Source: Kagunavirus BCH953P1
Length of the DNA: 44,622 bases
Reading direction: 5' to 3' (one strand)
Sequence record: OZ035754.1
The notes beneath the pieces were generated by a model. The model was not told the DNA's origin, searched no databases, and was given only the letters and a program-made list of their open reading frames with translations. A program made the translations under genes and the position numbers. Positions 2,770-41,511 of the stretch are shown in pieces (positions within the stretch are counted from its first letter, which is position 1; each line of letters begins with the position of its first letter).

Positions 2770-2790
2770 AGCCCCGAAAGGGGCTTTCTT
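2770..2790 (+). terminator. stem-loop after portal gene (agcccc-gaaa-ggggct then ttctt)
   Basis: GC stem with GAAA loop followed by a short T-rich run; seen directly. Confidence 0.3.
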
Positions 2791-2795
2791 ATAGT

Positions 2796-3872
2796 ATGCT
2801 ATTAACTTTAGCGCCACAGGGTTTATCTATGAGATTACTTACATCCCTAATCAGCCACCAGATTTGGCTGCAACGCACCGCATCGGGCGAAGTGAAAGAC
2901 CTTGCGCCTTTCATTAAGGAGATGCGGGACGAAATCAAACGGCAGGTGCTGCTGTTCGGTGACGATGGGCGTAGCACCGCGCGACTGAATAAACTGTTAC
3001 GCGACCTGGAAGAAGCACTGAGCGGACTTACGGGCGACTGGCAAACAAAGCTGACGGAAGACCTTAAGGAACTGGCGGAGTATGAAGCAGAGTGGAACGT
3101 AAAAACGCTGACGGCTAACGTTAACGCGGAATTTGTTACACCCGCCGCCGAGCAGGTGTGGTCCGCTGCCGAGTTTCAGCCTCTGTCGCTAAGCGACAAG
3201 CCTGTCGATTTCACCAAGCTGATGTCGGACTGGGGTGAAACGGAGGTTGCGCGCCTGGTAACTGGTGTTAAGATGGGTTTCGTACAAGGGCAAACCACAC
3301 GGCAGATTGTTAAGAATGTTGTAGGCGCTGGCGGACTGGCCGACATCTCAGAACGTAACGCAGCTACCGTAATCCGCACCGCGCTGTCGCACGTATCCAA
3401 CGAAGCCCGTAACGAGACGTACCGCCAGAACGACGACATCATCGAGAAATACGAATGGGTATCAACGCTGGACAGCCGTACCAGTACGATTTGCAGAGCC
3501 AGAGACGGAATGACGTGGGAAATCGGTAAAGGGCCGATGCCCCCCGCCCATCCGAACTGTCGATCGTGCACGGCACCGGTAATCAGTTCAGAGTTCGATT
3601 TCCTGGATAAAGGCGCGAAACGCGCAGCTAAGGGCGCAGAAGGTGGTACTCAGGTAAGCGCAGACACCACTTACTACGAGTTCCTGAAACAACAACCGGC
3701 ATGGTTTCAGGACCAGGCTCTCGGGCCAACCCGCGGTAAGATTTTCCGCAACAGCGGTATATCGCCGGAGGAGTTTCGCGTAATATCTGTAGATGGTTTC
3801 GGGAATCCGCTCACGCTTAAGCAGATGGCGGAACTCGATAAACGTGTTGCTGATTATCTGAAAGGGGAATAA
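2796..3872 (+). CDS. head morphogenesis protein (MuF / SPP1 gp7-like)
   Basis: 358 aa after portal; conserved gene order; start uncertain (alternative ATG at 2829). Confidence 0.65.
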   Translation: MLLTLAPQGLSMRLLTSLISHQIWLQRTASGEVKDLAPFIKEMRDEIKRQVLLFGDDGRSTARLNKLLRDLEEALSGLTGDWQTKLTEDLKELAEYEAEWNVKTLTANVNAEFVTPAAEQVWSAAEFQPLSLSDKPVDFTKLMSDWGETEVARLVTGVKMGFVQGQTTRQIVKNVVGAGGLADISERNAATVIRTALSHVSNEARNETYRQNDDIIEKYEWVSTLDSRTSTICRARDGMTWEIGKGPMPPAHPNCRSCTAPVISSEFDFLDKGAKRAAKGAEGGTQVSADTTYYEFLKQQPAWFQDQALGPTRGKIFRNSGISPEEFRVISVDGFGNPLTLKQMAELDKRVADYLKGE

Positions 3873-3955
3873 TGATGGGCTTTTTCAAAGTAACTGATTC
3901 CTAAGGGTAGAGGCGGTAAGCAAGGCGGCGAAGGTTACTAAGCCAGAATGATATG

Positions 3956-3985
3956 AGGCCCCGTTAAGGGGCCTTAGTTTTATTT
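3956..3985 (+). terminator. rho-independent terminator (aggcccc-gtta-aggggcct then T-rich)
   Basis: GC hairpin followed by tagttttattt; sits after the head morphogenesis gene and overlaps the 3' end of the minus-strand ORF 3964..4200. Confidence 0.55.
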
Positions 3986-4200
3986 AAAGAATATCGCGAA
4001 CTTCTTGTAACCCGCTGGCTCGTTGCGCTGACCATGTTCGATAGCAAAACGTTGAACGTTGTTAAAATCGTTCTCTTCCATACCGTCGGTGCAAAAGGTA
4101 AAAAAAAGTTACGTTTGTTTCCGATAAGCACACGGCTCGCAACATCAATGCTGTAAAGTTCTTCGATAGCGCGTACCACGTTTGCAGTAGCTTTGTTCAT
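3964..4200 (-). CDS. hypothetical small protein (78 aa as read; contains an internal A8/T8 homopolymer, alternative frame possible)
   Basis: Track ORF; reverse-oriented inside the structural block; preceded by conserved promoter P1; C-terminal half runs into the terminator hairpin. Confidence 0.4.
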   Translation of the reverse strand: MNKATANVVRAIEELYSIDVASRVLIGNKRNFFLPFAPTVWKRTILTTFNVLLSNMVSATSQRVTRSSRYSLNKTKAP

Positions 4201-4235
4201 TTCTAAATTCCTTATCTCTCGTTTCGATGTAATGA

Positions 4236-4264
4236 ATAGTACCCTATTATATTGGGGTGCGCAA
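4236..4264 (-). promoter_or_regulatory. sigma70-type promoter P1 (TTGCGC-N17-TACTAT), B-family
   Basis: On minus strand TTGCGCACCCCAATATAATAGGGTACTAT; identical over about 33 nt to the copy at 13781..13809; immediately upstream of the minus ORF 3964..4200. Confidence 0.6.
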
Positions 4265-4539
4265 ACTGTTTATTCACCTATTTCAGTTATTCCACTTGAT
4301 TGTAAATGTCGGAATAAACTATTCGAATAGTTGACTTTTCACTGAAAATATGATAAGCTCCACCTGAGCTTGTGAAGTATGAACAAGCGACCGCGGCGCG
4401 GGCAGGTAACGGAGCGGGACGTAAGTCCTGAGTGTAGTTACGCTGACGCGTTCGGAAGGGTCATACTATATTGCTTGTGTAAAAAGTAACTGGTTTACTG
4501 AGATTACGCCGTTTCTATGTTTAAATGATAAGGACTAGC

Positions 4540-8374: not shown

Positions 8375-8989
8375 ATGGCTAAGACTAAAACAGAGATGTT
8401 TACCCTTATCGGTGCGAATCTTCCGGATAACACCGCCGGAGCTATTACACCTGCGAAGCTACGCGAAGTAATGACCCAGATGGCGGATTCGCCTATTTAC
8501 GCCACTCCCGGTGTTAAAGAGGTTGAAGTTCTCCGCGCTGCGTCGACAGTAACACAAGCGCCTACCGCAGTAGATACAGCATTGCAGGTATCGTTCGGCT
8601 CTGCTCAGGGAAGCGCATCTGACCCGGTAATGATTAATGCTGCAGGGCTTGTTACGTTCAACACCGCAGGTAACTATGCTGTTCGCATCAAGTTACAGGC
8701 TGGGCGCACAGGGGCCAGCGGCACATCCATCCTTTTATCGCGCATTCTTCTGAACGGTTCTCAGTACGGGTCACCCGCAGCTACTAAACTGGTAAGCGCC
8801 GATATTACAATCCCGATTGAGTCTCGCGTAGTTATTAACCCGACCGCAGGCCAGACGTTTGCCGTTCAGATTATGCGGGATAGCGCCGGGAGTGACTTTG
8901 GCGGCGTATATCCGCAAGCGGCTACTGTAACTGCATGGGGTACAGCGCCTTCTGCGCTACTGGTTATCTCGAGACTGGAGGCCGCGTAA
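8375..8989 (+). CDS. hypothetical structural protein
   Basis: 204 aa track ORF tightly packed in the neck cluster. Confidence 0.45.
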   Translation: MAKTKTEMFTLIGANLPDNTAGAITPAKLREVMTQMADSPIYATPGVKEVEVLRAASTVTQAPTAVDTALQVSFGSAQGSASDPVMINAAGLVTFNTAGNYAVRIKLQAGRTGASGTSILLSRILLNGSQYGSPAATKLVSADITIPIESRVVINPTAGQTFAVQIMRDSAGSDFGGVYPQAATVTAWGTAPSALLVISRLEAA

Positions 8990-10155: not shown

Positions 10156-11322
10156 ATGGCTACAACTCCTTTTAAGGGCGCGAATACCGCGCAATTCTAT
10201 GTGGCGGAAACTACCCCGGGCGTAACACCGACTAACCCGGTCTGGTCGCCGTTGCGTAACACAGGCGGCGTCCCTGCTATTACCCGAGACACGCTGACAT
10301 CCAACGAACTGGACGGCAGCCGCGAAACTACATCCATCCGCACCGGTAACAAACAGGTTAGCGGAGAATACGCCATCGAGCTTAGTTCGAAAAGCCAGGA
10401 TGACTGGCTGGCAGGTGCCTTAGGCTCTGCGTGGCAATCAGGTGTATCCTTGACTGACCTGTCAATTACCGTCGCACCGGCGGGCAAGACGTTCACCCGT
10501 GCTGATGGCAGCTTTATTTCTGATGGCGTTGAAGTGGGCGACCTGATCGCGTTCACCGACTTAACGGGCGACAACGCTAAACCGTTCATCGTAACCGAGG
10601 TAAGTGCGACTGTTGTCACCGGCGCTGGTATCCAACATACTCTGACCACTGAGACAGTAACTACCGCCGCTAAGACCGGAGACAAACTGGAAACCGGTAG
10701 CCAGTGTAAGACGTTCTCTATCCTCACCTGGTACAAAGGACAGTGCGGCGGCGCCAGCGCATACACGTTGACCAAAGGCGTAGAAGTTTCTGGGTTCACA
10801 GTTGAACAGGCTGTTAATGCGATGGTAACAGGCAGCTTCCCGTTTATCGGGCGTACCCAGGAGATTCTTACCGAGCCACCGTCTGGCTCTGATTTCTCCT
10901 CTGTTATGTTCGAGGATGAGCCGTTCTCCTCTGTTGACGTTTCCGTGTTTGATGGCTCTACGCCGTTACGCTGTGATAGCCTGACCATCACCAACGATAA
11001 CAGCGCGTCCGCACAGTTCGAACTCGGCAACACTAACGTAGCGTTTGTGGAGCGTAGCCGCGCGGCTAATACCTTCTCCATCTCCGGTAAGCTGTACGAC
11101 ATGGCGATGATTCAGAAGTTTATCAACGAACAGCAGGTAGAGATTAACTCTATTCTGGCGGGGGTAAATGGGGCTATGTCTTTTAGTTTGAAACGTGCAG
11201 AACTTACAGCAGTCACACCAGAGATTGGCGGGCCCGAGTCAATCACTCAGAGCATAGAAGGCCAGGCTACGGGAAACCAGTACCAGTCGTCTATTGTTAT
11301 CCAGCGTATCACTTACGCATAA
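10156..11322 (+). CDS. major tail protein
   Basis: About 388 aa; SD AAGAGG 8 nt upstream of ATG 10156 (track ORF starts at GTG 10150); followed by strong terminator. Confidence 0.6.
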   Translation: MATTPFKGANTAQFYVAETTPGVTPTNPVWSPLRNTGGVPAITRDTLTSNELDGSRETTSIRTGNKQVSGEYAIELSSKSQDDWLAGALGSAWQSGVSLTDLSITVAPAGKTFTRADGSFISDGVEVGDLIAFTDLTGDNAKPFIVTEVSATVVTGAGIQHTLTTETVTTAAKTGDKLETGSQCKTFSILTWYKGQCGGASAYTLTKGVEVSGFTVEQAVNAMVTGSFPFIGRTQEILTEPPSGSDFSSVMFEDEPFSSVDVSVFDGSTPLRCDSLTITNDNSASAQFELGNTNVAFVERSRAANTFSISGKLYDMAMIQKFINEQQVEINSILAGVNGAMSFSLKRAELTAVTPEIGGPESITQSIEGQATGNQYQSSIVIQRITYA

Positions 11323-11326
11323 AACT

Positions 11327-11351
11327 AAGGCCCCTTTCGGGGCCTTTTTCT
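11327..11351. terminator. terminator hairpin between convergent genes (aggcccc-tttc-ggggcct then ttttc)
   Basis: Seen directly; separates the plus major tail gene from the minus-strand cassette. Confidence 0.6.
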
Positions 11352-11905
11352 TACAAACCTAATTTTAAAGCAATGTCTATAACGTTGGATTTAACGTCAC
11401 CCGGTATGATGTAGGTGTCGTAATCTTCTACACCATCAACGCCGTACAGATAACCGCGGCTGTCCCCCTCAAACGTATAGCCTTCTCGGTGCAAGCGAAC
11501 GATTCTTACATCATGACCCGCGGTGACGATAGGGGTTACTTCGCTGGAGAACCCGCCATCAGACACCACAAAAACTTCGTCGCCGTCGGGCAAGTTTCCG
11601 GCAAGATACTTACCGAAATAATCATCACCGAATACCGGTTTAATGAATTGCTCCGAAATGGCAATCATGAACTGACGACGGGACAACCCATTAAGAAAAC
11701 CCTCTGGCTTTTCTTTCCGCGCCCGGTCGTCGTAGCCGTCGAGAAATTCGTGGTAAGCATCCGGGCCTAACGCTGCCAGAGCAATATTGAACATTGGATT
11801 CTTGAAACTGGTAGTTCCTTTTGCAAAGCCCATTTCTACCAGCGCCATAGCAAGCGTGTCTTTCCCGCAACCCGCAGGGCCATTAAGAATAATTACCTTA
11901 GCCAT
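11351..11905 (-). CDS. P-loop deoxynucleoside monophosphate kinase-like protein
   Basis: 184 aa; N-terminal Walker A LNGPAGCGKDT resembles the T4 gp1 dNMP kinase P-loop. Confidence 0.55.
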   Translation of the reverse strand: MAKVIILNGPAGCGKDTLAMALVEMGFAKGTTSFKNPMFNIALAALGPDAYHEFLDGYDDRARKEKPEGFLNGLSRRQFMIAISEQFIKPVFGDDYFGKYLAGNLPDGDEVFVVSDGGFSSEVTPIVTAGHDVRIVRLHREGYTFEGDSRGYLYGVDGVEDYDTYIIPGDVKSNVIDIALKLGL

Positions 11906-12393
11906 TATTTATCGCTCCCGTGTGATTTTAAGTATGTAGAGTTCCCGTTACAGTCATATTCAGTGACCGCGTGTGTCGTGATTCCTAAGCCGCGGAAATG
12001 CTTTATTACCGCTGGAGAGTCGTCGAATGCGCACAAGATTCTCTCCAGCCCAATAGCACGCAACACCTCTTCTTTAATTACGATGTCTTTTCTGTTGTCG
12101 TGTTTGCTGCGCATTAACAGAACGTCGAACTTGACATTGTTTTTACGTAACCACTCGCGAGTTTCTTCCTCGGCGTCGTCGCTTCGCCCGGTAAGGATGA
12201 TTACGGTCATCCCGGTATGCCACAACGTGTTGCACAAGTGAATGTTGTCATATATCGGCGAATCATCTTTGCAGGCCATGTTAAAAGGCTTCCACGCCCA
12301 GGTTTCGCCGTAGTTATCTTTTGGCAGCAGGTGTAAGCGATGAGTTCCGTCGGCTAATGTTCCATCTAAATCGAAAATCACAATATCTTTCAT
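11905..12393 (-). CDS. HAD-superfamily phosphatase (nucleotidase / polynucleotide phosphatase-like)
   Basis: 162 aa; N-terminal DLDGTL HAD motif I; ATGA-type overlaps with both neighbours. Confidence 0.65.
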   Translation of the reverse strand: MKDIVIFDLDGTLADGTHRLHLLPKDNYGETWAWKPFNMACKDDSPIYDNIHLCNTLWHTGMTVIILTGRSDDAEEETREWLRKNNVKFDVLLMRSKHDNRKDIVIKEEVLRAIGLERILCAFDDSPAVIKHFRGLGITTHAVTEYDCNGNSTYLKSHGSDK

Positions 12394-13520
12394 CCCAGCA
12401 TCTCCGGTGAAATAGTTAAACGTGCGACCTCGCCATATTCGGCGCTATAAGTAATTACATTTGCACTACGGCCTGACATCCATCCGCCGCGAGAGGCGTA
12501 TGCGTCTTTAGCCGCTAAGGTGCGGTGTTGCTCAACAATCATGTTACGGCTTTCTACAATCTTTTGATGGTGCAGGTGGCCTACGTGGGCGTAGCTGTAA
12601 ACACTCTCGCCGAATGCTTTGCGGAACTTGGCAATCATAACCGGTTCGATAGCGTCGAAGCGTGCTTTATGTCCGTGATGGAAGAACAGCGTAGTTTTGC
12701 CGTGTTGTACCATCTTGTAAACATCCGGCGACGTATCGACAACCACTCGGCTGTCGTTCGAATATAAAACTGTGAACATTTCTGCCAGCCACACGGACCC
12801 TACAGGGTCGTGATTTCCTTGCACGATAAGCAAGCGAACGGTTTTATGTTTAACCAGCGCCATATCAACAACACGGCGCACCATACGAATCATGTAGCGG
12901 ACAAGTTTCTGGTAGCGAGTGTCCGCGTCCAACACATGACGTGACTCAGGAGTAACGGCATCCAGACTATCGAAGTGCGCGAAGTCGCCTAGCAGGTTAA
13001 TAACTCCCGTTCCTGCATCCGGTGCTTTCTGAAACGCCGCATCGAACCAACGGGAGAACAGGTCTTCCGCAATTTTCATGTCCCAGTCGTCGCCACTCTC
13101 GTCGGCCCATGCCAGCATACCGAGATGGAAATCAGATACCGTGTAAAGATTGAGTAGCTTGTCGTCGCGTTTAGCGCGAACGGCTTTAACAGGTGCAACG
13201 GGTGTAATCTCTGACTTCATGCCTTCAATTACGGCTTTCATCAACTCTATCTGACGTTCGGCGTCAGTATCGGTCTTAACCCATTGCAACTTAGTGTTGC
13301 CGAACTCGTCCACAAGTGACGACGTGCCTTTAATTTTGTAGCCGTCCGGGACAAGGTGGCTAACGTCGCGCCCGTGGCCTACGCCTTTCTTAGCCAGCTT
13401 CGCTTTACGGATGCGAATAACGCGGTCTGAGATGCCATATTTACGGGCTATATCGATAGTTTTAACTCCGGCGTTCAATTCTTCCTGTAACTGCTCGTCG
13501 GTTATTTTCTTCCGGGCCAT
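12390..13520 (-). CDS. HTH domain fused to calcineurin-like metallophosphoesterase
   Basis: 376 aa; N-terminal HTH-like segment (IARKYGISDRVIRIRK); phosphoesterase motifs GDFAH, GNHD, GHLH. Confidence 0.65.
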   Translation of the reverse strand: MARKKITDEQLQEELNAGVKTIDIARKYGISDRVIRIRKAKLAKKGVGHGRDVSHLVPDGYKIKGTSSLVDEFGNTKLQWVKTDTDAERQIELMKAVIEGMKSEITPVAPVKAVRAKRDDKLLNLYTVSDFHLGMLAWADESGDDWDMKIAEDLFSRWFDAAFQKAPDAGTGVINLLGDFAHFDSLDAVTPESRHVLDADTRYQKLVRYMIRMVRRVVDMALVKHKTVRLLIVQGNHDPVGSVWLAEMFTVLYSNDSRVVVDTSPDVYKMVQHGKTTLFFHHGHKARFDAIEPVMIAKFRKAFGESVYSYAHVGHLHHQKIVESRNMIVEQHRTLAAKDAYASRGGWMSGRSANVITYSAEYGEVARLTISPEMLG

Positions 13521-13558
13521 GCTTACTTCCTCGTGTTTAGGATTTGTCCTATGCTAGC

Positions 13559-13765
13559 TCACTTCTCGTTAACATTCGAGTTGCACGCCCAGATTAAAAT
13601 AAATACCCACGGCAGCAGAATCCAACCAAGAAACAGGTTGGCCATGAATATCGCTAACTTCGCTTTATGGTTACGGAAGTACGCAACCAGGAAAGGTGCG
13701 AAATAAGCGAGAAGTGCAAACAGAATTAAGGAAACCGGTAAACTTGACATTTTAAACCCCTTCAT
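13559..13765 (-). CDS. small membrane protein (two predicted TM helices)
   Basis: 68 aa hydrophobic ORF; first gene downstream of promoter P2. Confidence 0.5.
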   Translation of the reverse strand: MKGFKMSSLPVSLILFALLAYFAPFLVAYFRNHKAKLAIFMANLFLGWILLPWVFILIWACNSNVNEK

Positions 13766-13780
13766 TGTTGGTGTAAGTGA

Positions 13781-13809
13781 ATAGTACCCTATTATATTGG
13801 GGTGCGCAA
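13781..13809 (-). promoter_or_regulatory. sigma70-type promoter P2 (TTGCGC-N17-TACTAT), identical copy of P1
   Basis: Same about 33-nt sequence as at 4236..4264; precedes the minus-strand cassette 13765..11351. Confidence 0.6.
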
Positions 13810-13917
13810 GTAATGTGATAGAATAATTTTGCGCCTAGTGTCGCACACGAAAAGCGGGTGGTTCCCGTCTGGCGCATTTACCCTTAACCTGTAACCTCTT
13901 AACCAAAGGATTAAAGA

Positions 13918-14337
13918 ATGAAACTTTCTGATTTCTATTTCGAAGAGAAAGCACTGGTAGGCAAGAAGATGCCGATTCTGCTACCAAACGGCGAAGACTC
14001 CGGTGAGTGGCTTAATGTTGTAAGTCCGGATGCCGATGTCGCCGTTAAAGCGGGGCGTGCTTTCATTATCGCATACCGTCGCGGGCTGGCGCGTTTCGAA
14101 GAACTGGAAAAAGCTGCCAAAGAATCCGGCGACTATACTGAATATAACCTGGCGATTAATGAGCTAGCGGAAGACCTCAACCGGCAACTCGCGGCGGAAG
14201 TCGTAAACGGCTGGAGCTTCGACGACGAGCCTTTCTCTAAGGAAGCGTTTAACAAATTGCTCGACCAGTTTAAAGGGCTTGGAACCCAGGTAGCAGCGTT
14301 CCATAACGCTGAGCGCAAAGCATTACAGGAAAAGTAG
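13918..14337 (+). CDS. tail assembly chaperone (G-like)
   Basis: 139 aa immediately upstream of the tape measure gene; SD AAGGA. Confidence 0.55.
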   Translation: MKLSDFYFEEKALVGKKMPILLPNGEDSGEWLNVVSPDADVAVKAGRAFIIAYRRGLARFEELEKAAKESGDYTEYNLAINELAEDLNRQLAAEVVNGWSFDDEPFSKEAFNKLLDQFKGLGTQVAAFHNAERKALQEK

Positions 14338-26029: not shown

Positions 26030-26284
26030 TTAGTTAGATAATTCGGCTTGAACTTGCTTAATAAGTTCTCCAGCCGTTGTGAAGTCTACAGACAGCCCTT
26101 TAGCGACGTCTTCCGCAAGCACCTTGCGGCCAACTGACCCGAAACCCAGGGTACGGTTTACTTCCGAAACCTTCATAGACCATGAGTAATTAGCCGACGC
26201 CCCTGTGTATTTACAGATGCGAACAGATGAATCGATTGAACCGAGAATCATGGTGTTTACTGACAGTTGAAGTTCGATAGCCAT
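26030..26284 (-). CDS. hypothetical protein (84 aa)
   Basis: Track ORF downstream of promoter P3. Confidence 0.5.
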   Translation of the reverse strand: MAIELQLSVNTMILGSIDSSVRICKYTGASANYSWSMKVSEVNRTLGFGSVGRKVLAEDVAKGLSVDFTTAGELIKQVQAELSN

Positions 26285-26285
26285 T

Positions 26286-26600
26286 TTATAATTCCTTATA
26301 TTGTTGGGGTATGTGCTTACTATAATAGTCTGCTATTAGGGTGTCAACCTGTTTTATAGAGCCAACCACAAAAACATTTGCGCCGCGTTTGCGCATCCGC
26401 TCATGTTCTCGTAGCTGGTGCGGGTCTGGCTTCGTGTTTTCGTCTTTCTTAACCTCGACAAACCATATGATGCCGCCGGGGAGCATTACCAGCAAGTCGG
26501 GGGCGCCGGAGCGCCCCTCGTAGGAAAGTTTACGAACGAGGCCCCCCAGGGCCTCGAATCGGTCTTTCGCGTATTTCTGTACGCGGCCCTCTTTAGTCAT
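26286..26600 (-). CDS. VRR-NUC domain nuclease (PD-(D/E)xK)
   Basis: 104 aa; GAPDLLVM ... FVEVK pattern typical of VRR-NUC. Confidence 0.55.
   Translation of the reverse strand: MTKEGRVQKYAKDRFEALGGLVRKLSYEGRSGAPDLLVMLPGGIIWFVEVKKDENTKPDPHQLREHERMRKRGANVFVVGSIKQVDTLIADYYSKHIPQQYKEL
26319..26347 (-). promoter_or_regulatory. sigma70-type promoter P3 (TTGACA-N17-TATAGT), A-family
   Basis: On minus strand TTGACACCCTAATAGCAGACTATTATAGT; lies in the 3' end of the VRR-NUC gene, upstream of 26030..26284. Confidence 0.55.
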
Positions 26601-29213: not shown

Positions 29214-29837
29214 TTAGCGGCGACGACGTTCGCGGCGCGGTGCTTCATCTTCGTCGTCTTCGAGGTCATCGACACTTGCAGCAACTTTAGAGCCACCGAA
29301 CGCTTTACCTTCGCCTACGTATTTAATCGCCAGCAGGTTAACACCGAGAACTTTGTATTTCTGGCTGAACCAAATTTCAACGCTTACGTTAGCGACGCAG
29401 CCGCTGTAAACCTGTTCACCTTCAATCTGTTCGCCGTCTACATTGAAGTCCTGCTCTACCTGAGTCTCGCCTTTTTTAGAGGTTACAATCAGCGGTTGTT
29501 TCTGTGCCTTCGCTTTGAAGTAGAAGCCTTCGGGGAAGTCTTCAAACGGATTGTCGCGCTCTGCAATATCTTTAATCGCGCATTTATCCATGTGCTTACC
29601 TTCGCCGTAGTTGGACTTCATCCATTTCTCGGCAGCGGCTGCGCCTAACGCTTCTTCAACTACAGCGTAAACGGTGTCGTAAAGCGCGTCGATTTGAGCA
29701 TGGCCAGACGGCAGGATAATCGTCGCGCTGTACTGGCCTTTAGTGATTGAACCATCATCGTTTTCACGGTCTTTTTCGCGTTCGAATACGTTAACCCATG
29801 CAGTGTTTACTTTACGCAGATTCAGTTTAATACCCAT
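29214..29837 (-). CDS. putative single-stranded DNA-binding protein (DUF2815-like), acidic C-terminal tail
   Basis: 207 aa; acidic tail DDLEDDEDE near C-terminus; sits between polymerase and exonuclease genes; own promoter P4. Confidence 0.45.
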   Translation of the reverse strand: MGIKLNLRKVNTAWVNVFEREKDRENDDGSITKGQYSATIILPSGHAQIDALYDTVYAVVEEALGAAAAEKWMKSNYGEGKHMDKCAIKDIAERDNPFEDFPEGFYFKAKAQKQPLIVTSKKGETQVEQDFNVDGEQIEGEQVYSGCVANVSVEIWFSQKYKVLGVNLLAIKYVGEGKAFGGSKVAASVDDLEDDEDEAPRRERRRR

Positions 29838-29890: not shown

Positions 29891-29919
29891 ACTATAATAG
29901 CTAACTATTCAGGTGTCAA
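29891..29919 (-). promoter_or_regulatory. sigma70-type promoter P4 (TTGACA-N17-TATAGT), A-family
   Basis: On minus strand TTGACACCTGAATAGTTAGCTATTATAGT in the intergenic gap upstream of 29214..29837. Confidence 0.6.
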
Positions 29920-29923
29920 CACT

Positions 29924-30415
29924 TTATTTGCCGTGATTTTCGTGGAAACCGTACTTAACCTCTGCGGCCTTTCGCGCTGCTATTGCGCCGTCGATAGTTT
30001 CAAAACGTCCGAGATGAATTAGTTTCTTCTCAACTTTTATCTCAGCTCGCCATTTGCCGCGGGTTTTATCGAAACTAACACCCGTCACCCCTGACGTGTT
30101 GTTGCGGGCTAAAGATAAATTACGGCTGTTCTCTTTTCGGGTTGTTTTCCTTAAATTAGAAAGAAGATTATTTTCCCGATTATGGTCAATATGGTCTATC
30201 TCCTCTCCAGGTTGAAGTTTATTTTCAGGGTTCATCATATCCCATATAATTCTATGCGCCAGAAATGTCCTTCCACGTAAACGTACGCACACATAGCCCC
30301 AATTACGGACAGACGCGACCTCGCTCCCAGCGGGTGCACGATTGCTGTTAGTTACGCGCCAATACAACTTACCGGTATTGGTATCATACCTAAAATAATC
30401 TTCCCATTTAATCAT
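29924..30415 (-). CDS. HNH homing endonuclease with AP2 DNA-binding domain (copy 1)
   Basis: HNH motif EIDHIDHNRENN; AP2-like SGVTGVSFDKTRGKWRAEI; start at internal ATG 30415 in ATGA overlap with exonuclease stop. Confidence 0.75.
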   Translation of the reverse strand: MIKWEDYFRYDTNTGKLYWRVTNSNRAPAGSEVASVRNWGYVCVRLRGRTFLAHRIIWDMMNPENKLQPGEEIDHIDHNRENNLLSNLRKTTRKENSRNLSLARNNTSGVTGVSFDKTRGKWRAEIKVEKKLIHLGRFETIDGAIAARKAAEVKYGFHENHGK

Positions 30416-31653
30416 TCCAAATCCTCCTCTGTTACCCCCTTCCACTCAGGTCGTTTGTCGTCCGCCGTTGTAACGCATGGGGCTCCGGGCTTACGCGTGA
30501 TGAAGTTTTTTAGTTCTTCTTCTGGGATAACTTTCAAGGCTGCTGTAGGGGTCATGATTGACTTAGTCATAACTTTATCACCAAATTTAGCAATAACGGC
30601 ATCGGGGTCCGCCCAGGAGCGATTGCCATCCCGCCCTTCAACCAGCTTGTACCCCGGAACTTTCTTACCGGAATGCAACGCGGCAGCCATAGCTTTCTCA
30701 ACCTTGTCGATGTGCTGGCGCAACAACGGCAGCTTCTCATACTCGGCGACGAGTTGCTCTGGCGTCAATTCCAGCGCAAAGTCGTCCTCAAGTTCTTCCG
30801 CCAGTACCGCGTTAACGGTTTTTGTACGCGCGGCGCACTGTTCGGAGAACCGACACCACTGGCAACCATCTACTGACGGCTTGAAGTCCGACGCTTTCAG
30901 GTTCTTCTTGCCACGGAAATACGCATCAAGAGCTAACAGCGCACGTTTCTGTGCAAACTTAGCGAACAGTTCCAGACCTTCAACCGAGATGTCCCACTCC
31001 GACGCACCCCCAGCGTACGGCTGGAAGATGACCAGACGAACCATTGTTATGTTATAACGTCTCTTTAGTCGGCGATAAACACCGAGAGCGTAAAGCATAA
31101 GCTGCTTGTTTTCTTTCGCTTCGACACGATGTCGTCCTGTTTTCAGGTCGCCGATGATAAGCATGTGCTCTTCGGTGTTCGCCAGTTCCTGGACGGCAAC
31201 AAGGTCAGCGGTTCCGAACGTCTCGACACCTTCGTAACCAGGATGCAATACCTCAGTAAGATTGACGCGCATTTCCAGCTTAGCGTAAGTCGCTACGTCC
31301 ATAATCGCTTTGCAGTAGTCGGTGTACTTTCGCACCTGCTCAATCATGTCAGCCGTAATCAGCACCGCGCCTTTCATCGGGCTGATTAGCGCCTTAATCT
31401 GGCCTTTACCCTCATCCAGCACGTAAGCACCGACTTCGCGCTCTAACGGCAGTGCAGTGCCTTTTATGTACTGGTTTAAATGTACCTCAGCTATGGTGTG
31501 ACACGCGGTCCCTGTAACGGCGGCTTTACCTGACGTGTTGGGGATATCTTTTTCACAGGCCAGTGATGCACTGCACGCCAACCATTTCTTAGCACCGGAC
31601 GGTGACAACAGCGCGTGCACATCGTTATTGCCCCTGCGTTCTTTTAATTTCAT
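30412..31653 (-). CDS. PD-(D/E)xK exonuclease (Cas4/RecB-like, DUF2800-like) with C-terminal Cys cluster
   Basis: 413 aa; IIGDLKTGRH...EAKENKQLMLYALG nuclease core; Cys cluster CQWCRFSEQC. Confidence 0.6.
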   Translation of the reverse strand: MKLKERRGNNDVHALLSPSGAKKWLACSASLACEKDIPNTSGKAAVTGTACHTIAEVHLNQYIKGTALPLEREVGAYVLDEGKGQIKALISPMKGAVLITADMIEQVRKYTDYCKAIMDVATYAKLEMRVNLTEVLHPGYEGVETFGTADLVAVQELANTEEHMLIIGDLKTGRHRVEAKENKQLMLYALGVYRRLKRRYNITMVRLVIFQPYAGGASEWDISVEGLELFAKFAQKRALLALDAYFRGKKNLKASDFKPSVDGCQWCRFSEQCAARTKTVNAVLAEELEDDFALELTPEQLVAEYEKLPLLRQHIDKVEKAMAAALHSGKKVPGYKLVEGRDGNRSWADPDAVIAKFGDKVMTKSIMTPTAALKVIPEEELKNFITRKPGAPCVTTADDKRPEWKGVTEEDLE

Positions 31654-32144
31654 CTTTTAACCCCATGATTTTTGTGGAACCCGTAAATCTCTTCTGCTTT
31701 CTTTCTAACGTTTACCGCATCGTCGAAGCTGTCGAAGTATCCTAAATGCTTCAATACCTTGTTTATTTTTATACTTGCCCGCCATCTACCGCGCCTACGG
31801 CACCATGAAACTCCGGTCACACCTGACGTATTTAGCGACGACATTCCAGAATTACGCCGGTTGCCTAGACTGTCAACTTTACGAAGATTAGATATGCGAT
31901 TATTCCTTCTGTCATGGTCTATATGGTCAATCTGGTCGCCGCTACTTAAAACATCATTAGGATTACAAAGTTCCCATATAACACGGTGCACTTTATAGAC
32001 CTTACCTAACACTTGTACCTGTTTATAGCCGTGAACATCATTCGACCCCGCCTCTTGGCCTACCTTTACCTTATCCGAAGGGCTTATCTTCCAAAATAAT
32101 TTACCGGTATCAGGGTCATAGTCAAAAACTTCATGCCAATTCAT
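31650..32144 (-). CDS. HNH homing endonuclease with AP2 domain (copy 2, paralog)
   Basis: HNH motif QIDHIDHDRRNN; AP2-like SGVTGVSWCRRRGRWRASI; ATGA overlaps at both ends. Confidence 0.75.
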   Translation of the reverse strand: MNWHEVFDYDPDTGKLFWKISPSDKVKVGQEAGSNDVHGYKQVQVLGKVYKVHRVIWELCNPNDVLSSGDQIDHIDHDRRNNRISNLRKVDSLGNRRNSGMSSLNTSGVTGVSWCRRRGRWRASIKINKVLKHLGYFDSFDDAVNVRKKAEEIYGFHKNHGVKR

Positions 32145-32413
32145 ACTCTGTTCTCCCACTGGTCGATTAAATGTCTGGTCCGGTGATGACAATGCATAGC
32201 CCAGCCATACATCGACTCGAAGACATAAAAGTCAGGCTTGGCGAATGTCGTGCGCTTAATCTGCGACAAGTGACGGCCTATATCTTTAGGCCGTGGCACT
32301 TTGCCTAAGTACGCCATCTCTTCCATCTGGTGCGCACCGGATGGCGCACGCAATAGCCATAGCGCCTCTGTGCTATCCCGCCGGTCTACGGCGCGGTAGA
32401 GTTGGTAAATCAT
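32141..32413 (-). CDS. hypothetical protein (90 aa)
   Basis: Track ORF. Confidence 0.5.
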   Translation of the reverse strand: MIYQLYRAVDRRDSTEALWLLRAPSGAHQMEEMAYLGKVPRPKDIGRHLSQIKRTTFAKPDFYVFESMYGWAMHCHHRTRHLIDQWENRV

Positions 32414-32975: not shown

Positions 32976-33006
32976 TTGTTTCTCTCCTCTCGTTTGGTAT
33001 GGGCTA

Positions 33007-33035
33007 ACTATAATAGCGAACTATTCACTTGTCAA
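33007..33035 (-). promoter_or_regulatory. sigma70-type promoter P5 (TTGACA-N17-TATAGT), A-family
   Basis: On minus strand TTGACAAGTGAATAGTTCGCTATTATAGT; perfect -35. Confidence 0.6.
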
Positions 33036-33045
33036 TGGGCTTTTC

Positions 33046-33068
33046 TAAAATAATTAATATGGTACTAT
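33046..33068 (+). promoter_or_regulatory. promoter-like element for the HTH gene (B-family -10 block GGTACTATTCAC without a recognisable -35)
   Basis: TACTAT at 33063..33068 with the same flanks as P1/P2/P6; divergent from P5. Confidence 0.4.
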
Positions 33069-33099
33069 TCACATATCAACTGACTAAGGAGTAATTGAC

Positions 33100-33315
33100 A
33101 TGCAACCATCTGAACTAGGCATCCGTGTAGAACAGCGCCGTAAAGAACTCGGCATTTCCCAACGCCGTCTGGCTGTCCTGGCCGGTGTTTCCCAGGGCGC
33201 GATTAACCAGCTGGCACTCGGTGTAACTAAGGACGTCCGCCCGTCGACGTTGTTTAAGCTGGCGGAAGTGCTGCAAGTAGACGCCAAGTGGCTGGCGTTC
33301 GGTGAAGGGGCTTAA
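33100..33315 (+). CDS. XRE-family helix-turn-helix transcriptional regulator (Cro/CI-like)
   Basis: 71 aa; HTH ISQRRLAVLAGVSQGAINQL; SD AAGGAG; opposite orientation to flanking genes. Confidence 0.75.
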   Translation: MQPSELGIRVEQRRKELGISQRRLAVLAGVSQGAINQLALGVTKDVRPSTLFKLAEVLQVDAKWLAFGEGA

Positions 33316-33330
33316 CGCCCCTTTCTTTTT
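33306..33330 (+). terminator. rho-independent terminator (aggggc-ttaac-gcccct then tttcttttt)
   Basis: Seen directly, between convergent HTH and primase genes. Confidence 0.6.
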
Positions 33331-33332
33331 AC

Positions 33333-35573
33333 CTACTCCAAATCCTCCTCTGTCACCACCAGCATTTCATTCGGTTCGTATATTGTCTTCGGCCTTAGTC
33401 TATCCCCTATTCTTTCAGGTATACGATATGTTCTCGGTACTACTTCGCCATTAGCGTCGCAGCCTAGCATCAACTCACCGTCTTTCAGCATTTTATCAAG
33501 ATGGGTGTTAGTCACAGAAAAGTCACCGGAACGGGCCACTATCTGCTGCTGGGTAAAACCGCGACCTGTATCATCTGACTGTTGCAGGTCTTCCAGTGCT
33601 GAAAGTATTGACTCCTTCCTTACTTCATCCCTGCCGCGTTTAACTTCTTCCTTTACTTTTTGTTTACCTTCGTTAGTTAACCCTTCTTCCCGCTCTTTCT
33701 CCTCGTCAGTTTTGAACGGCTCGAAACCCCACGGCATAAGCACAAGCGCCTTGTGCGGCTCCGGCAGGTCGAGGTTTACTATTGTGCCGTATTCCTCTGT
33801 GCTACCGAGGAACTCAACCGCGCGATACTCTTTCGGCGGAGGAGCTTCACGAAACTGTACAGACTCCAGCACCATACCAACCGTTTTCTGTTGAGGCCCG
33901 TGCTTAAATTTCGAATGGTATACGTTTATCTGGCGGTCGGTTGCACGTTCAATTGTCAGTTCCACGTCGACGCCCGCATACAGCGCCCCACTACCACGGG
34001 CTTTCTTTCCGCCCTTCGGCGTATGGTGGACGACGCCAACCGCAGCTTTAGTCGCGTCGCGTACTTCTTTCAGTATGGCGATAACTTTACCCATGCCAAT
34101 CGCCGTTGATGAACTGTTTTCGTCGAACTTATCAATCGTCAGGGCCAGCGTCTGGTTTAGGGTGTCGAACGCAACCATACCGATTGGCTCGTCGCCGGCG
34201 GTTTCACGCATCAACTTAATAAGGCTTTTCAGTTTGCCAACTTCGCCCATGTCGATGACATGTACATAATCTTTACCTTCCTCGCCGTATTTAGCCGCGA
34301 GTGCGTCAATACGTGTGCGTGTAGCTGCGCCGCCCTCACCGTCAATATAGAAATGGTGGCAACGCTGGGTATCCGCCCCTGCAAACCGGTATCCGGCGGC
34401 GCTCAGGTACATCATCCCCAGCGTATAGAACGATTTGTACGTGCCGGATTCCCCAACAATATCCCAGATACAATCTGACGGCATGTACCCCTCAACGACG
34501 AAATCAGCCTTTACCGGTTCCGGTAGCTCGTCCTCTTCTGAGTCATCATCGTCTTCCAGGTCGTCGAGGCTGCATGAAACAGATTCACGCGCACCCCATC
34601 CGATAGCCTCGGCGACTTCACTGAACGGCAGCCCGGTCGCATCACACGCGTATTTCCACACTTCTTTCGGTGACATGCCTTCGGTCGCCGCAATGTCGGT
34701 GTCGTGAATCATGGTTACGTTAGGTGCGGCGTAGCCCTCACGTGGGAAGCACAGCAGGAAGTCGTCCGGACGCGGTGTCGGGTCGCTGTAGTTTTCTGCA
34801 TGCTCTGGTGTGGCTGGCATCTTAAGGCCGCGTGGTGTCATAGCACCGCCGTACTCGAACGCCAACGCCTCAAAAGCGTCCGTAAACGCTGTGCGTAGTT
34901 CTTCCGGTATCTGGTAGTCAGATGCGCTGCTCACCTCGTAATCCGGGATGCCCTCCAGTAACTCGTCCGGGTCAATCAGGTCGTTACGGCGCGACCAGAT
35001 AACCTGCGAGCCGACCGGCGGCAGGTACATCGGCTGAGACAGAGTGAACCCGCTGCGGTCCGCACCCATGCCTTTGAAGAAGTGTTCCAACAATCCATGA
35101 CGAACGCGGATGATGTCACCGCCCTCAACCGTTCGGGCCAGCGGCATGACGACGCGAAAGCGCGGGGCTTCGTCTGTGTGTGATGCCGTGGTGTAGAGGC
35201 ACATGGCTTTACGGCTGCGCTTAACCAGGCGCACAGCTTCCTGATACTCTTCCAGGGTTGCGCTGTCGAAGTCCAGGTACGTCAGCGACGATTTGTTTAC
35301 AGACGCGTCGCAGCGGTAGAAGAAGCCCCGGCGCGCTTGCTTAAAGTCACCGGTTTCCGGGTCTTTTACGGTGCTGTGCGTAGAATCGCACGCGGCAGTA
35401 ATATAGCCCGGCGCGGTCTTCGGATTAATCCCGTCACGAACGGCATCGAGCGGCTGGATTAACTCTTTCAGGTCGTCCAGTGTTGCCGTGTGAGTGGTTC
35501 TGACGTTTATATCCTTTTTCTCTGCCCGCGCGTTGCGACGAGACCACGAGTAGGATAAAATTACATCGGACAT
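33333..35573 (-). CDS. DNA primase/helicase (RecA-like AAA_25-type ATPase domain in C-terminal half)
   Basis: 746 aa; Walker A-like VGESGTYKS, Walker B-like region; N-terminal half unassigned (primase-like by position). Confidence 0.6.
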   Translation of the reverse strand: MSDVILSYSWSRRNARAEKKDINVRTTHTATLDDLKELIQPLDAVRDGINPKTAPGYITAACDSTHSTVKDPETGDFKQARRGFFYRCDASVNKSSLTYLDFDSATLEEYQEAVRLVKRSRKAMCLYTTASHTDEAPRFRVVMPLARTVEGGDIIRVRHGLLEHFFKGMGADRSGFTLSQPMYLPPVGSQVIWSRRNDLIDPDELLEGIPDYEVSSASDYQIPEELRTAFTDAFEALAFEYGGAMTPRGLKMPATPEHAENYSDPTPRPDDFLLCFPREGYAAPNVTMIHDTDIAATEGMSPKEVWKYACDATGLPFSEVAEAIGWGARESVSCSLDDLEDDDDSEEDELPEPVKADFVVEGYMPSDCIWDIVGESGTYKSFYTLGMMYLSAAGYRFAGADTQRCHHFYIDGEGGAATRTRIDALAAKYGEEGKDYVHVIDMGEVGKLKSLIKLMRETAGDEPIGMVAFDTLNQTLALTIDKFDENSSSTAIGMGKVIAILKEVRDATKAAVGVVHHTPKGGKKARGSGALYAGVDVELTIERATDRQINVYHSKFKHGPQQKTVGMVLESVQFREAPPPKEYRAVEFLGSTEEYGTIVNLDLPEPHKALVLMPWGFEPFKTDEEKEREEGLTNEGKQKVKEEVKRGRDEVRKESILSALEDLQQSDDTGRGFTQQQIVARSGDFSVTNTHLDKMLKDGELMLGCDANGEVVPRTYRIPERIGDRLRPKTIYEPNEMLVVTEEDLE

Positions 35574-35631: not shown

Positions 35632-35865
35632 TTATTCCAGGTCTTCTAAAGTAGCGGCCATTCCGCGAACTTCAGCAACAGCACTATATTTCCCACCAAC
35701 ATTTTTCACGACACCAGATTTAACCAGCACCTTCAACGACCCTTCAATAATGGCGGAACTATAGTACCTAAAATAACTACGGCGCAAGTCGATAACGCTG
35801 CACGACCCTTTTTTACGTGTTAACGAAACGACTGCCGTGAATACGCGTGACTGGAACTCGGTCAT
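35632..35865 (-). CDS. hypothetical protein (77 aa)
   Basis: Track ORF; C-terminus ends EDLE like two other proteins in this block. Confidence 0.5.
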   Translation of the reverse strand: MTEFQSRVFTAVVSLTRKKGSCSVIDLRRSYFRYYSSAIIEGSLKVLVKSGVVKNVGGKYSAVAEVRGMAATLEDLE

Positions 35866-36032
35866 TTCACATTCTCCTTAATCCACGCTTCCACTTTCTC
35901 CGGGTCAAACGTACCCGGCTGACGGCGGCCCATAATGCGGATACAACAATCCGGGAACTTCCCGCTCTTTAGCCAGTTATTCAGTGTGCGACGAGTAACC
36001 CCGATACGCTCGGCTACTTCATTCTGTGTCAT
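35862..36032 (-). CDS. small HTH DNA-binding protein (AlpA/excisionase-like fold), probable early regulator
   Basis: HTH MTQNEVAERIGVTRRTLNNW; start taken at internal ATG 36032 because the predicted promoter P9 lies at 36066..36093 (track ORF extends to 36065). Confidence 0.5.
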   Translation of the reverse strand: MTQNEVAERIGVTRRTLNNWLKSGKFPDCCIRIMGRRQPGTFDPEKVEAWIKENVK

Positions 36033-36065
36033 TCTCAAACCCTCAGTATCAGTTAACGAAACCAA

Positions 36066-36093
36066 GTATACATTGCGAATAATGGGAAATCAA
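36066..36093 (-). promoter_or_regulatory. candidate sigma70 promoter P9 (TTGATT-N16/17-TATACT) for the minus-strand replication operon
   Basis: Read on minus strand; moderate match. Confidence 0.35.
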
Positions 36094-36182
36094 ACATAAT
36101 CGCACCTATTGACATTATGAAAATCTTCGTTTAAGGTGCTTCTATATCTTAGTTACTTTGATTCCTGTTCACCTTGTAAGAA

Positions 36183-36216
36183 TGTTTAACCCGTGCGTCA
36201 AGCAAAGGGTTAAACA
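36183..36216. promoter_or_regulatory. inverted repeat tgtttaaccc / gggttaaaca (10-bp arms, 14-nt spacer) in the early control region
   Basis: Seen directly. Confidence 0.4.
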
Positions 36217-36370
36217 CAGGCTTACTGAACACGAGAATTATCATAACTTTCCTTCCTTAGTATCTCCGGTTGCCCTGGGCAAGCTATATTCTCATCAACG
36301 GCATATCTCTTAAGTATCTGATTTTCTTAATGTGCCGTAGATTCGCAACCGTAAAAATGTAACCCTTACC

Positions 36371-36394
36371 GGGCGGGCTTAAGGCCCGCCCTTT
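36371..36394 (+). terminator. GC-rich hairpin gggcgggc-ttaag-gcccgccc followed by TTT
   Basis: Seen directly, in intergenic region upstream of P6. Confidence 0.4.
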
Positions 36395-36464
36395 AGTTAC
36401 AAAGTAATAAGAATAAAGGCACGACCCTGCCTGAAGAATCACAACGGCAACGTAACTATTCTCT

Positions 36465-36493
36465 TGCACACCCCAACATAATAGGATACTATT
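36465..36493 (+). promoter_or_regulatory. sigma70-type promoter P6 (TTGCAC-N17-TACTAT), B-family
   Basis: TTGCACACCCCAACATAATAGGATACTAT; near-identical to P1/P2; 25 nt upstream of the first plus-strand early gene. Confidence 0.6.
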
Positions 36494-36517
36494 CACTTAT
36501 CGTAACGAGACAGAGGA

Positions 36518-36712
36518 GTGAGGGTTATGTTTAAGAAGGGTCAGTTGGTGAAGATTTTGGAGACCGGAGAGTTAGCGGTTATCTCATTTATGCACCACAG
36601 AGAATATGAGGTCTATTTTGCTAAATCTTTAACGGAGTCCTATCTCACCGTGCTATACGCGCAAGATATGAAACTCATCGGCAACAATTTTAAATTCAAA
36701 GGGGCGAAGTGA
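36518..36712 (+). CDS. hypothetical early protein (64 aa)
   Basis: Track ORF; SD GGAGTGAGGG. Confidence 0.5.
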   Translation: MRVMFKKGQLVKILETGELAVISFMHHREYEVYFAKSLTESYLTVLYAQDMKLIGNNFKFKGAK

Positions 36713-37777: not shown

Positions 37778-37818
37778 TGTTATATTGTAACAATAGCTTG
37801 GGATTTTACTGAGTGACT

Positions 37819-37840
37819 TACGCTGCTGTGCAGCAGCGTA
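37819..37840. repeat. near-perfect palindrome TACGCTGCTG-tg-CAGCAGCGTA
   Basis: 10-bp perfect arms seen directly in a 227-bp intergenic region. Confidence 0.6.
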
Positions 37841-37944: not shown

Positions 37945-37973
37945 TTGCACACTGAGATAGAATAGGCTACTGT
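37945..37973 (+). promoter_or_regulatory. sigma70-type promoter P7 (TTGCAC-N17-TACTGT), B-family
   Basis: TTGCACACTGAGATAGAATAGGCTACTGT followed by TCATTTACAC as in the other B-family copies. Confidence 0.5.
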
Positions 37974-38004
37974 TCATTTACACAAACGAGAGGAGAGATA
38001 GAAG

Positions 38005-38154
38005 ATGGTTACTTTGATGGTTATGGAGTTTGAAAACAGCGTAGCAACTTACCGTGAGATGACTATGGTGCAGGCGTATCACCTGGCATCAAACGGCAAC
38101 TTCTACAAGGCTCAAATCATCAACGAGTTCGGGGTAATTGACTATGAATTTTAA
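38005..38154 (+). CDS. hypothetical small protein (49 aa)
   Basis: Read from sequence; SD GAGGAGAG. Confidence 0.35.
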   Translation: MVTLMVMEFENSVATYREMTMVQAYHLASNGNFYKAQIINEFGVIDYEF

Positions 38155-38416
38155 CAGCTACACCGTTACCGTTGATTTTGAGGGGCTGGAGTTGCCCCTC
38201 CCCAACAACTACCGATATGTCACGCGCGACCGTAACGGGTTTATCCAGGGGTGGAGGAACAAACCGACAGATACTGAGTTCGGGATGTCGGGCGGCGAAG
38301 AGTTGCCGATCACTTTCGGGCATCAGAGTAGCAACGAAGAGCTTAAAACTGTGATTCGTAAGTATCGCCGCCGCGGTAACACTGGGCTTATAGCAATAAC
38401 AGGTGCTGTTGAATAG
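38144..38416 (+). CDS. hypothetical protein (90 aa)
   Basis: Track ORF 38138..38416; start at ATG 38144. Confidence 0.5.
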   Translation: MNFNSYTVTVDFEGLELPLPNNYRYVTRDRNGFIQGWRNKPTDTEFGMSGGEELPITFGHQSSNEELKTVIRKYRRRGNTGLIAITGAVE

Positions 38417-38434
38417 ACGAGAGGAGAGACAGAG

Positions 38435-41460: not shown

Positions 41461-41482
41461 ATCTATTTTCTGCAATGACTAG

Positions 41483-41511
41483 TTGACTATTACTCTCACA
41501 CCAATTATATT
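41483..41511 (+). promoter_or_regulatory. sigma70 promoter P8 (TTGACT-N17-TATATT)
   Basis: Strong consensus match, directly after the terminator and about 35 nt upstream of 41545. Confidence 0.55.

Follow-up and report, generated by a model that had tools for sequence, protein, structure and literature searches.

The operators of phage 434 are 14-bp dyads with a poorly conserved centre and the half-site ACAA(G/T). The dispersed operators of P1 C1 and the 'stoperator' sites of mycobacteriophage L5 gp71 are asymmetric, are bound by monomers and maintain lysogeny, and MerR-type proteins classically bind dyads located within promoter spacers. Here we analysed the genome of Kagunavirus BCH953P1 (OZ035754.1; the whole stretch of 44,622 nt is referred to as the window) and followed up a repeated promoter element at 4236-4264, which the initial annotation had described as a 'B-family' promoter. 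We propose that this element belongs to a set of host sigma-70 promoters, each overlapped by a dyad operator for a phage-encoded helix-turn-helix (HTH) dimer, the likeliest candidate being the 71-aa Cro-like protein encoded at 33100-33315; we hold this account with moderate confidence.

Like the 434 system, this phage combines a 71-aa Cro homologue with a 14-bp site composed of two 5-bp half-sites and four variable central bases. The sites overlap promoters, and a weaker copy is present at the regulator's own promoter. Unlike in 434, the half-site is AATAG and the phage is virulent, with no CI partner, integrase or lysogeny module; a search for CI, an integrase and a three-site operator found none of them in the window or in annotated relatives. 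There is no tripartite right operator (OR) either, since two sites are found at the cro locus and about nine more are dispersed over the genome. Judged from these features, the system appears to work like a Cro/operator circuit and not like a lambdoid immunity region. The resemblance to P1 C1 and L5 gp71 concerns distribution only, with around ten scattered sites for one small phage regulator; the phage studied here is lytic, and it combines dyad sites with a Cro-type protein. Similar to MerR-type promoters, one class of promoters in the window (A-type) carries the dyad between -35 and -10, and one of the phage genes codes for a small MerR/excisionase-like HTH protein (HTH_17). However, the spacer has the optimal length of 17 nt (18 in some relatives), and the HTH_17 protein lacks a coiled-coil dimerisation helix and is dispensable for conservation of the sites.

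The conserved spacer sequence is palindromic over 14 bp (AATAG-N4-CTATT). No other 5-N-5 palindrome is as frequent in the genome, and the remaining common ones are GC-rich terminator stems. The window contains six perfect copies where 0.02 would be expected, and 11 copies (1.06 expected) when up to one mismatch is allowed. Promoter-like hexamers accompany all 11 sites, ten of which are intergenic while one falls in the final 50 nt of an open reading frame (ORF). With the -10 hexamer set at -12 to -7, the dyad centres lie at about -12.5 (five B-type sites, including that of the cro-like gene promoter), -15.5 (one site), -18.5 (three A-type sites) and -33.5 (two C-type sites). In the B copies, the right half-site of the palindrome coincides with the -10 TACTAT. 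The 'B family' is thus not a separate element but one of several registers of a single operator placed over promoters. All dyad positions fall within the polymerase footprint and precede the predicted start, which means that the element acts on DNA and not on RNA; an RNA-level role was ruled out on the same grounds, and Rfam and tRNA scans of the window returned no match.

The B copies themselves largely agree with their first description. The 29-mer TTGCGCACCCCAATATAATAGGGTACTAT occurs exactly at 4236-4264 and at 13781-13809, both on the minus strand, with 0 occurrences expected by chance. The identity between these two copies does extend beyond the 29-mer, over 32 nt (4233-4264 and 13778-13809) and not the roughly 33 nt initially given. 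A close variant with three mismatches to the 29-mer was found on the plus strand at 36464-36492, its earlier coordinates (36465-36493) having been one base too high. The plus-strand copy at 37945-37973 (TTGCACACTGAGATAGAATAGGCTACTGT) was recovered by a search with a 22-nt core, as was the -35-less variant before the gene at 33100 (core 33053-33074, -10 at 33063-33068). In each of the four full copies, 17 nt separate TTGCRC from TACTAT/TACTGT, and a start codon with a ribosome-binding site follows every copy in the same orientation at a distance of 15-40 nt (4200 and 13765 or 13750 on the minus strand; 36518 or 36527, 38005 and 33100 on the plus strand), again in line with the initial annotation. 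The -35 TTGCNN and the -10 are retained at orthologous sites in Jerseyvirus and Cornellvirus, and the promoter of the cro-like gene, which has no recognisable -35 in Kagunavirus, reads TTGCGT-17-TACTAT in Jerseyvirus and thus has one there. These observations support the view that the B copies are sigma-70-type promoters.

Two other readings of the B sequences were considered. The TATAAT-like hexamers could be taken as the real -10, and ATCACA-17-TATAAT at 13819-13791 scores 10/12, but this -35 is absent from the other three copies and the candidate was rejected. TTGCRCAC was not enriched as a separate motif (6 seen, 4.2 expected). The 5' leaders of several genes share (A)AACGAGAG(G)AG around the ribosome-binding site, at 4215-4227 and 32984-32995 on the minus strand and at 36502-36518, 37984-37995 and 38415-38426 on the plus strand, so the similarity between copies reaches beyond the promoter; the shared leader motif AAACGAGAGGAG was not significantly enriched in a search with two mismatches.

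A critical question is whether the conserved spacer reflects a bound factor or common descent of the promoter copies. Seven sites were compared with their orthologues in Jerseyvirus wksl3. Differences affect 4/70 half-site positions, 13/28 positions of the central N4 and 77/168 positions of the 12-nt flanks (Fisher p = 8e-6 and 2e-10), in a comparison that is partly biased because the sites had been picked by motif. We therefore added an alignment built blind to the motif, in which 47 distinct Kagunavirus and Jerseyvirus sequences upstream of the 33100 gene were compared. Here the half-sites of the perfect site are invariant. The N4 has at least six forms in Kagunavirus alone, and variation, including a 1-bp indel, is also seen in the stretch toward the -35. 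The dyad has also been kept where the promoter register changed: in the wksl3 orthologue of the 13781 promoter, the -35-to-dyad distance is 7 nt and not 10, and the -10 has become TATTAT, while the palindrome is unchanged. The initial annotation had suggested that spacer conservation beyond the needs of sigma-70 points to an extra factor, and this suggestion gains weight from the comparison: with half-sites fixed while centre and flanks drift, and a register that varies relative to the hexamers, the extra conservation seems best explained by a bound factor.

The alternative is that no extra factor exists and that paralogous promoter cassettes have spread by duplication, recombination or gene conversion, their similarity being due to descent and to two overlapping -10-like sequences on opposite strands. 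Exchange of this kind clearly takes place. The 4236 and 13781 copies, identical over their 32 nt, share TTGCGC, and both copies of the relative Bas74 (PQ850627.1, L001; 5138 and 13663) have TTGCAC, a pairing within genomes that suggests concerted evolution. The 13781 position of phage fBC-Eco01 is occupied by the 36477-type 20-mer, which indicates that promoter cassettes do exchange. Moreover, the palindrome contains TATAAT-like and TACTAT-like hexamers, and the downstream leaders are similar too. Descent alone, however, leaves unaccounted for the fixed half-sites amid approximately 46% divergence of N4 and flanks between the genera, and the retention of the palindrome when -10 and spacing change. 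The same dyad is found in three or four registers, including one wholly inside the spacer of TTGACA-17-TATAGT promoters, a sequence that sigma-70 does not read, and sister lineages have different yet equally symmetric dyads at the same positions. Copy duplication and gene conversion do happen, but they leave this pattern of constraint unexplained, and as a full account of the element we consider them quite unlikely.

If a factor binds the dyad, it might be encoded by the phage or by its host, two options that the initial annotation had left side by side. The motif scan across the genome and its relatives that it had called for found the dyad enriched in the window, conserved in Kagunavirus and Jerseyvirus, and nearly absent elsewhere. 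In a set of 70 viral contigs surrounding homologues of this 33100 gene, AATAG-N4-CTATT ranks first among N4 palindromes at each of the Kagunavirus and Jerseyvirus loci. The 39 Kagunavirus loci contain 175 perfect sites and the 12 Jerseyvirus loci contain 37, compared with a single perfect site in 26 loci of other lineages (530 kb); relatives' palindromes were assessed by counts of gapped palindromes. TTG is present at the expected -35 position in >90% of the Kagunavirus and Jerseyvirus sites. Cornellvirus, which shares the Salmonella host with Jerseyvirus, has TATTA-N6-TAATA at equivalent TTGCNN-17-TAATAT promoters, and a further contig (L056) carries AATAC-N4-GTATT in A-like and B-like registers. 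A clean symmetric A-to-T switch of the Cornellvirus operator became less plausible when additional sites showed degenerate TAWTAS half-sites. Since the dyad sequence tracks the phage lineage and not the host, a phage-encoded factor is indicated, and the phage regulator is the half of the earlier suggestion that stands. A DNA-binding protein of E. coli or Salmonella could still be imagined, given that the dyad is AT-rich, as are many sites of enterobacterial regulators and nucleoid proteins, and that phages of two host genera share it. Yet Cornellvirus and Jerseyvirus differ in their dyads despite a common host, L056 has a third variant, and to our knowledge the dyad matches no enterobacterial regulator consensus (ArgR, Fur, CRP, Fis). 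A host protein is very unlikely to be the binder.

The lineage of Klebsiella phage 37P2 (L006) does not have the AATAG dyad. Its two long noncoding stretches at 10885-11215 and 1570-1860 carry arrays of another repeat, made up of ACTCGCAAAATTTTGCGAGT and related TTGCGAGT units.

A Pfam scan of small ORFs revealed two clear sequence-specific HTH proteins. The first is the 71-aa HTH_3 (Cro/CI-type) product of 33100-33315 on the plus strand (E = 7e-13), a candidate operator-binding repressor. Its best sequence match in PDB is phage 434 Cro, which also has 71 aa (phmmer E = 1.7e-7, residues 6-68). A single-sequence AlphaFold2 (AF2) model comprises five helices, with a predicted local distance difference test (pLDDT) score of 84, and the top Foldseek match of this model is again 434 Cro (2cro; 42% identity, TM 0.72/0.78), the other top matches being the 434 repressor DNA-binding domain and the Cro/OR1 complex. 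In the alignment, the counterparts of Gln28 and Gln33 of 434 repressor are retained. The cro-like gene itself lies between two palindromes: it is divergent from the perfect one at 33012-33025 (O1) and preceded by the weakened one at 33056-33069 (O2, AATATGGTACTATT, one mismatch), with 44 bp between the two centres. A hairpin terminator at 33304-33324 overlaps its stop codon and separates it from the convergent helicase-primase gene. Homologues are present in every examined lineage with the promoter/dyad architecture, with recognition helices that depend on the lineage, and GenBank records often label them "transcriptional repressor" or "Cro". In the Bas74 record, which is well annotated in other respects, the cro-like gene at 33202-33414 is unannotated and a 31-aa minus-strand ORF at 33217-33312 is annotated instead.

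The second protein is the 56-67-aa HTH_17 (excisionase/MerR-like) protein encoded at 35862-36065 on the minus strand, the first gene of the leftward early operon. We consider it unlikely, but worth weighing, that this protein binds the palindrome and regulates the promoters while the Cro-like protein has another role. Several observations count against our proposal, and some of them speak for HTH_17 directly. Besides the partial bias of the wksl3 pairs, the B copies score just 7/12 to the sigma-70 consensus, and they are consequently missed by a simple promoter scan. The recognition helices of the Kagunavirus (SQGAINQ) and Jerseyvirus (SQSLITH) Cro-like proteins differ at 4/6 positions although the operators are the same, and the Cornellvirus helix (TQSAISH) is close to that of Jerseyvirus though the sites differ; these mismatches leave no simple helix-to-operator code. 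The Cornellvirus half-sites are degenerate (TAWTAS) and overlap -10-like sequences, and protein-site covariation is confounded with phylogeny. HTH_17 orthologues, in turn, are about 87% identical and co-occur almost perfectly with AATAG-N4-CTATT, being confined to Kagunavirus and Jerseyvirus; the gene is absent from Cornellvirus, L056 and the Klebsiella-phage lineage. The protein is far better conserved between the two genera than Cro, for which Kagunavirus and Jerseyvirus share 51% identity. It is also probably the 'HTH' early gene of the K1B4 time course, and the classical preference of MerR-type proteins for dyads in promoter spacers would fit such a role.

These arguments are countered by the genomes in which HTH_17 is missing. 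Two Kagunavirus contigs without the gene (L031 and L020) keep six and three perfect sites, respectively, along with a 96%-identical cro-like gene, and the promoter/palindrome architecture, with altered half-sites, is also present in lineages that have no HTH_17 gene. The HTH_17 protein has no dimerisation region, and its family members are excisionases and the HTH domains of terminase small subunits; a PDB search with it yielded no significant relative. The promoter spacers measure 17 nt, compared with 19-20 nt in MerR-type promoters, and the HTH_17 gene's own promoter region contains no copy of the palindrome. HTH_17 is thus probably not the binder. With that gene missing from contigs and lineages that keep the sites or the architecture, the 71-aa Cro-like protein is the favoured candidate and most likely the protein that recognises the dyad.

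In L031 (12559-13144) and L020 (3624-4209), genes for a 47-aa CxxC...CxxC protein and a 149-aa protein, the latter with no Pfam match, take the place of the HTH_17 gene and the neighbouring 77-aa gene. The first genes of the leftward early operon would accordingly seem to form a swappable module.

The sequence comparisons establish the sites and their symmetry, enrichment, promoter context, selective conservation and lineage specificity, as well as the homology of the Cro-like protein. We infer that these promoters fire, that the Cro-like protein binds the sites and that binding represses, and we propose the following sequence of events. Soon after infection, host sigma-70 polymerase would start transcription at the strong A-type and the weaker B-type promoters. 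The Cro-like protein, made from a weak promoter bearing a weak operator, would then accumulate, and its dimer on the dyads could occlude the -10, the spacer or the -35, thereby blocking RNA polymerase. This might shut off the early small genes (36464, 37945), the replication operons (33035, 29919, 26347) and the leftward cassettes (4264, 13809), which would otherwise run head-on into late rightward transcription. The Cro-like protein would also cap its own level, and the one-mismatch sites at 4331 and 41483 (over the -35, TTGACT) and at 2790 may be weaker targets.

A wider interpretation is that a CI-less Cro-type protein acts as a genome-wide timer in this virulent subfamily, silencing all early and replication promoters, as well as the leftward cassettes, through one operator in several registers, perhaps while activating a divergent late promoter, and that the promoter cassettes serve as recombination points. 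We regard this extension as doubtful. An extended -10 site on the plus strand (TTGGGG-16-TGaTAGAAT, 13797-13824) faces the tail-assembly-chaperone gene at 13918 and adjoins the candidate operator at 13780-13793, which would then be centred near -44.5 relative to the -10 at 13816-13824, approximately the position of lambda CI at PRM. The distance from dyad to -10 at this site differs by 2 bp in wksl3.

The motif itself has been published in descriptive form. It is listed, at the same genomic positions, among the PHIRE 'phage promoters' of phages Golestan and fBC-Eco01, as seven 20-mers per list, for example TAATAGGGTACTATTCATTA and TGAATAGTACCCTATTATAT (PMC7203180, PMC9825357). Those papers give sequences only and do not remark on dyad symmetry, registers or a candidate binder (PMC7203180, PMC9825357); what is new here is the dyad operator common to several promoter classes and a named candidate regulator. 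The fBC-Eco01 genome paper states that the motif represents promoters of a phage-encoded RNA polymerase, based on its detection by PHIRE and on seven 'phage RNAP promoters' with the consensus tgAATAGTa-ccTATTat-T. However, the sites have canonical sigma-70 hexamers at 17-nt spacing, and an RNA polymerase gene is missing from the full annotations of the close relatives Bas74, wksl3 and VSiA and was not found among the large and scanned ORFs of the window. On these two grounds the assignment must be considered wrong, and we see virtually no chance that it is correct. For the genus, the only available transcriptome is the K1B4 RNA-seq study, which resolves genes but not start sites. There, an HTH gene (probably HTH_17) is one of four earliest genes, and a "specific DNA binding" gene (probably cro) is grouped with the middle ones. 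Our literature search on Jerseyvirus and Kagunavirus promoters or transcriptomes found only the two PHIRE lists and this one low-resolution study.

The Guernseyvirinae, to which Kagunavirus and Jerseyvirus belong, rank among the most frequently isolated E. coli and Salmonella phages suggested for therapy and biocontrol, and synthetic phage work uses them as small chassis. Their annotated "transcriptional repressor" is sometimes taken as a warning of lysogeny. If our proposal is true, a Cro-type timer acting on around ten operators would explain why the gene is retained in a virulent phage, and the published view that the motif belongs to a phage RNA polymerase would be corrected. It would also provide a testable map of early and middle transcription units, as well as compact repressible promoter/operator parts. 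In principle, this is a standard repressor-operator circuit, and the conceptual gain is therefore modest.

Among the individual B-type promoters, the one at 4236-4264 on the minus strand consists of the -35 TTGCGC (4264-4259), a 17-nt spacer and the -10 TACTAT (4241-4236), and its palindrome AATAGTACCCTATT occupies 4235-4248, with its centre at about -12.5. It serves a 78-aa gene (3964-4200, minus strand) that forms a self-contained leftward cassette ending at a hairpin at 3954-3976. The identical promoter at 13781-13809, with the candidate operator at 13780-13793, precedes a cassette running from 13765 to 11351 that encodes a superinfection-immunity protein, an exonuclease and a polynucleotide kinase/phosphatase and ends at a bidirectional terminator (11327-11346). 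On the plus strand, the promoter at 36464-36492 (TTGCAC-17-TACTAT) has a perfect palindrome at 36480-36493 and marks the beginning of the rightward small early genes (36518/36527). The promoter at 37945-37973 (TTGCAC-17-TACTGT, with TACTGT at 37968) has a palindrome at 37961-37974 with one mismatch (CTGTT) and lies upstream of a DUF7170 gene (38005-38154). The -35-less promoter of the cro-like gene spans 33040-33069 on the plus strand, with O2 at its 3' end.

A perfect hairpin, ACGCTGCTGTGCAGCAGCGT, is located at 37820-37839, about 20 nt downstream of the degenerate operator-like sequence AATAGCTTGGGATT (37793-37806). A ACGCTGCT...AGCAGCGT hairpin also follows operator-like sites in Jerseyvirus (wksl3, near 8960) and in other Kagunavirus contigs.

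The three A-type promoters, all TTGACA-17-TATAGT on the minus strand and matching the consensus at 11/12 positions, are the top sigma-70 matches in the region 25-44.6 kb. The first (33007-33035) is divergent from the cro-like gene, faces the leftward replication genes and holds O1 in its spacer, with the centre at about -18.5. The second (29891-29919, palindrome 29896-29909) lies upstream of the gene for a Gp2.5-like single-stranded DNA-binding protein (29214-29837). The third (26319-26347, palindrome 26324-26337) overlaps the 3' end of the ORF at 26286-26600 and lies upstream of 26030-26284.

In both C-type promoters, which are on the plus strand and share the -35 TTGACT, a palindrome with one mismatch covers the -35. 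The promoter at 41478-41511 (TTGACT-17-TATATT, 10/12) directly follows a T-run and lies upstream of 41545 and the genes leading to the terminase; its operator-like sequence ACTAGTTGACTATT is found at 41478-41491, with TTGACT at 41483 and the centre at about -33.5. The promoter at 4326-4359 (TTGACT-17-TAAGCT, with a TG extension) is directed toward the spanin, scaffold and capsid genes and carries AATAGTTGACTTTT at 4326-4339 over its -35 (TTGACT at 4331). A further operator-like sequence with one mismatch, TATAGTATGCTATT (2790-2805, plus strand), overlaps the extended -10 TGcTATTAA. It immediately follows the portal-gene terminator (2770-2785) and precedes the start of the head-morphogenesis gene (2829) by 39 nt; it is also kept in Jerseyvirus and equals PHIRE site 1 in the Golestan list. 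The longest head-morphogenesis ORF of the window begins at ATG 2796, within this operator-like site; the start used in relatives is 2829, in frame.

The genome is that of a virulent siphovirus of the subfamily Guernseyvirinae, genus Kagunavirus. The 3-kb stretch around the 4236 element matches Kagunavirus BCH953P1 at 99.9% identity and many E. coli Kagunavirus isolates at 92-94%, and the gene order of the window is that of the annotated relative Bas74. Packaging, head and tail genes run rightward over 1-23 kb, with the two short leftward cassettes (3964-4200 and 11351-13765) inside them. They are followed by the leftward replication block at 23.7-33 kb, the small rightward gene at 33100-33315, and the leftward helicase-primase gene with two small genes at 33.3-36.1 kb. 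The remainder, from 36.5 to 44.6 kb, is rightward and comprises small early genes, lysis genes and further small genes. Between the divergent early operons is a noncoding gap of about 450 bp (36066-36517) with a strong hairpin terminator at 36371-36391 on the plus strand; it contains no ORF of note and no Rfam match, and its counterpart in Jerseyvirus wksl3 measures about 850 bp. This gap could house a small RNA or a replication origin. Finally, the replication block contains two HNH_3 + AP2 homing-endonuclease genes on the minus strand (29924-30445 and 31650-32192), at whose positions Bas74 has none, and one of the two abuts the A-type promoter at 29891-29919.

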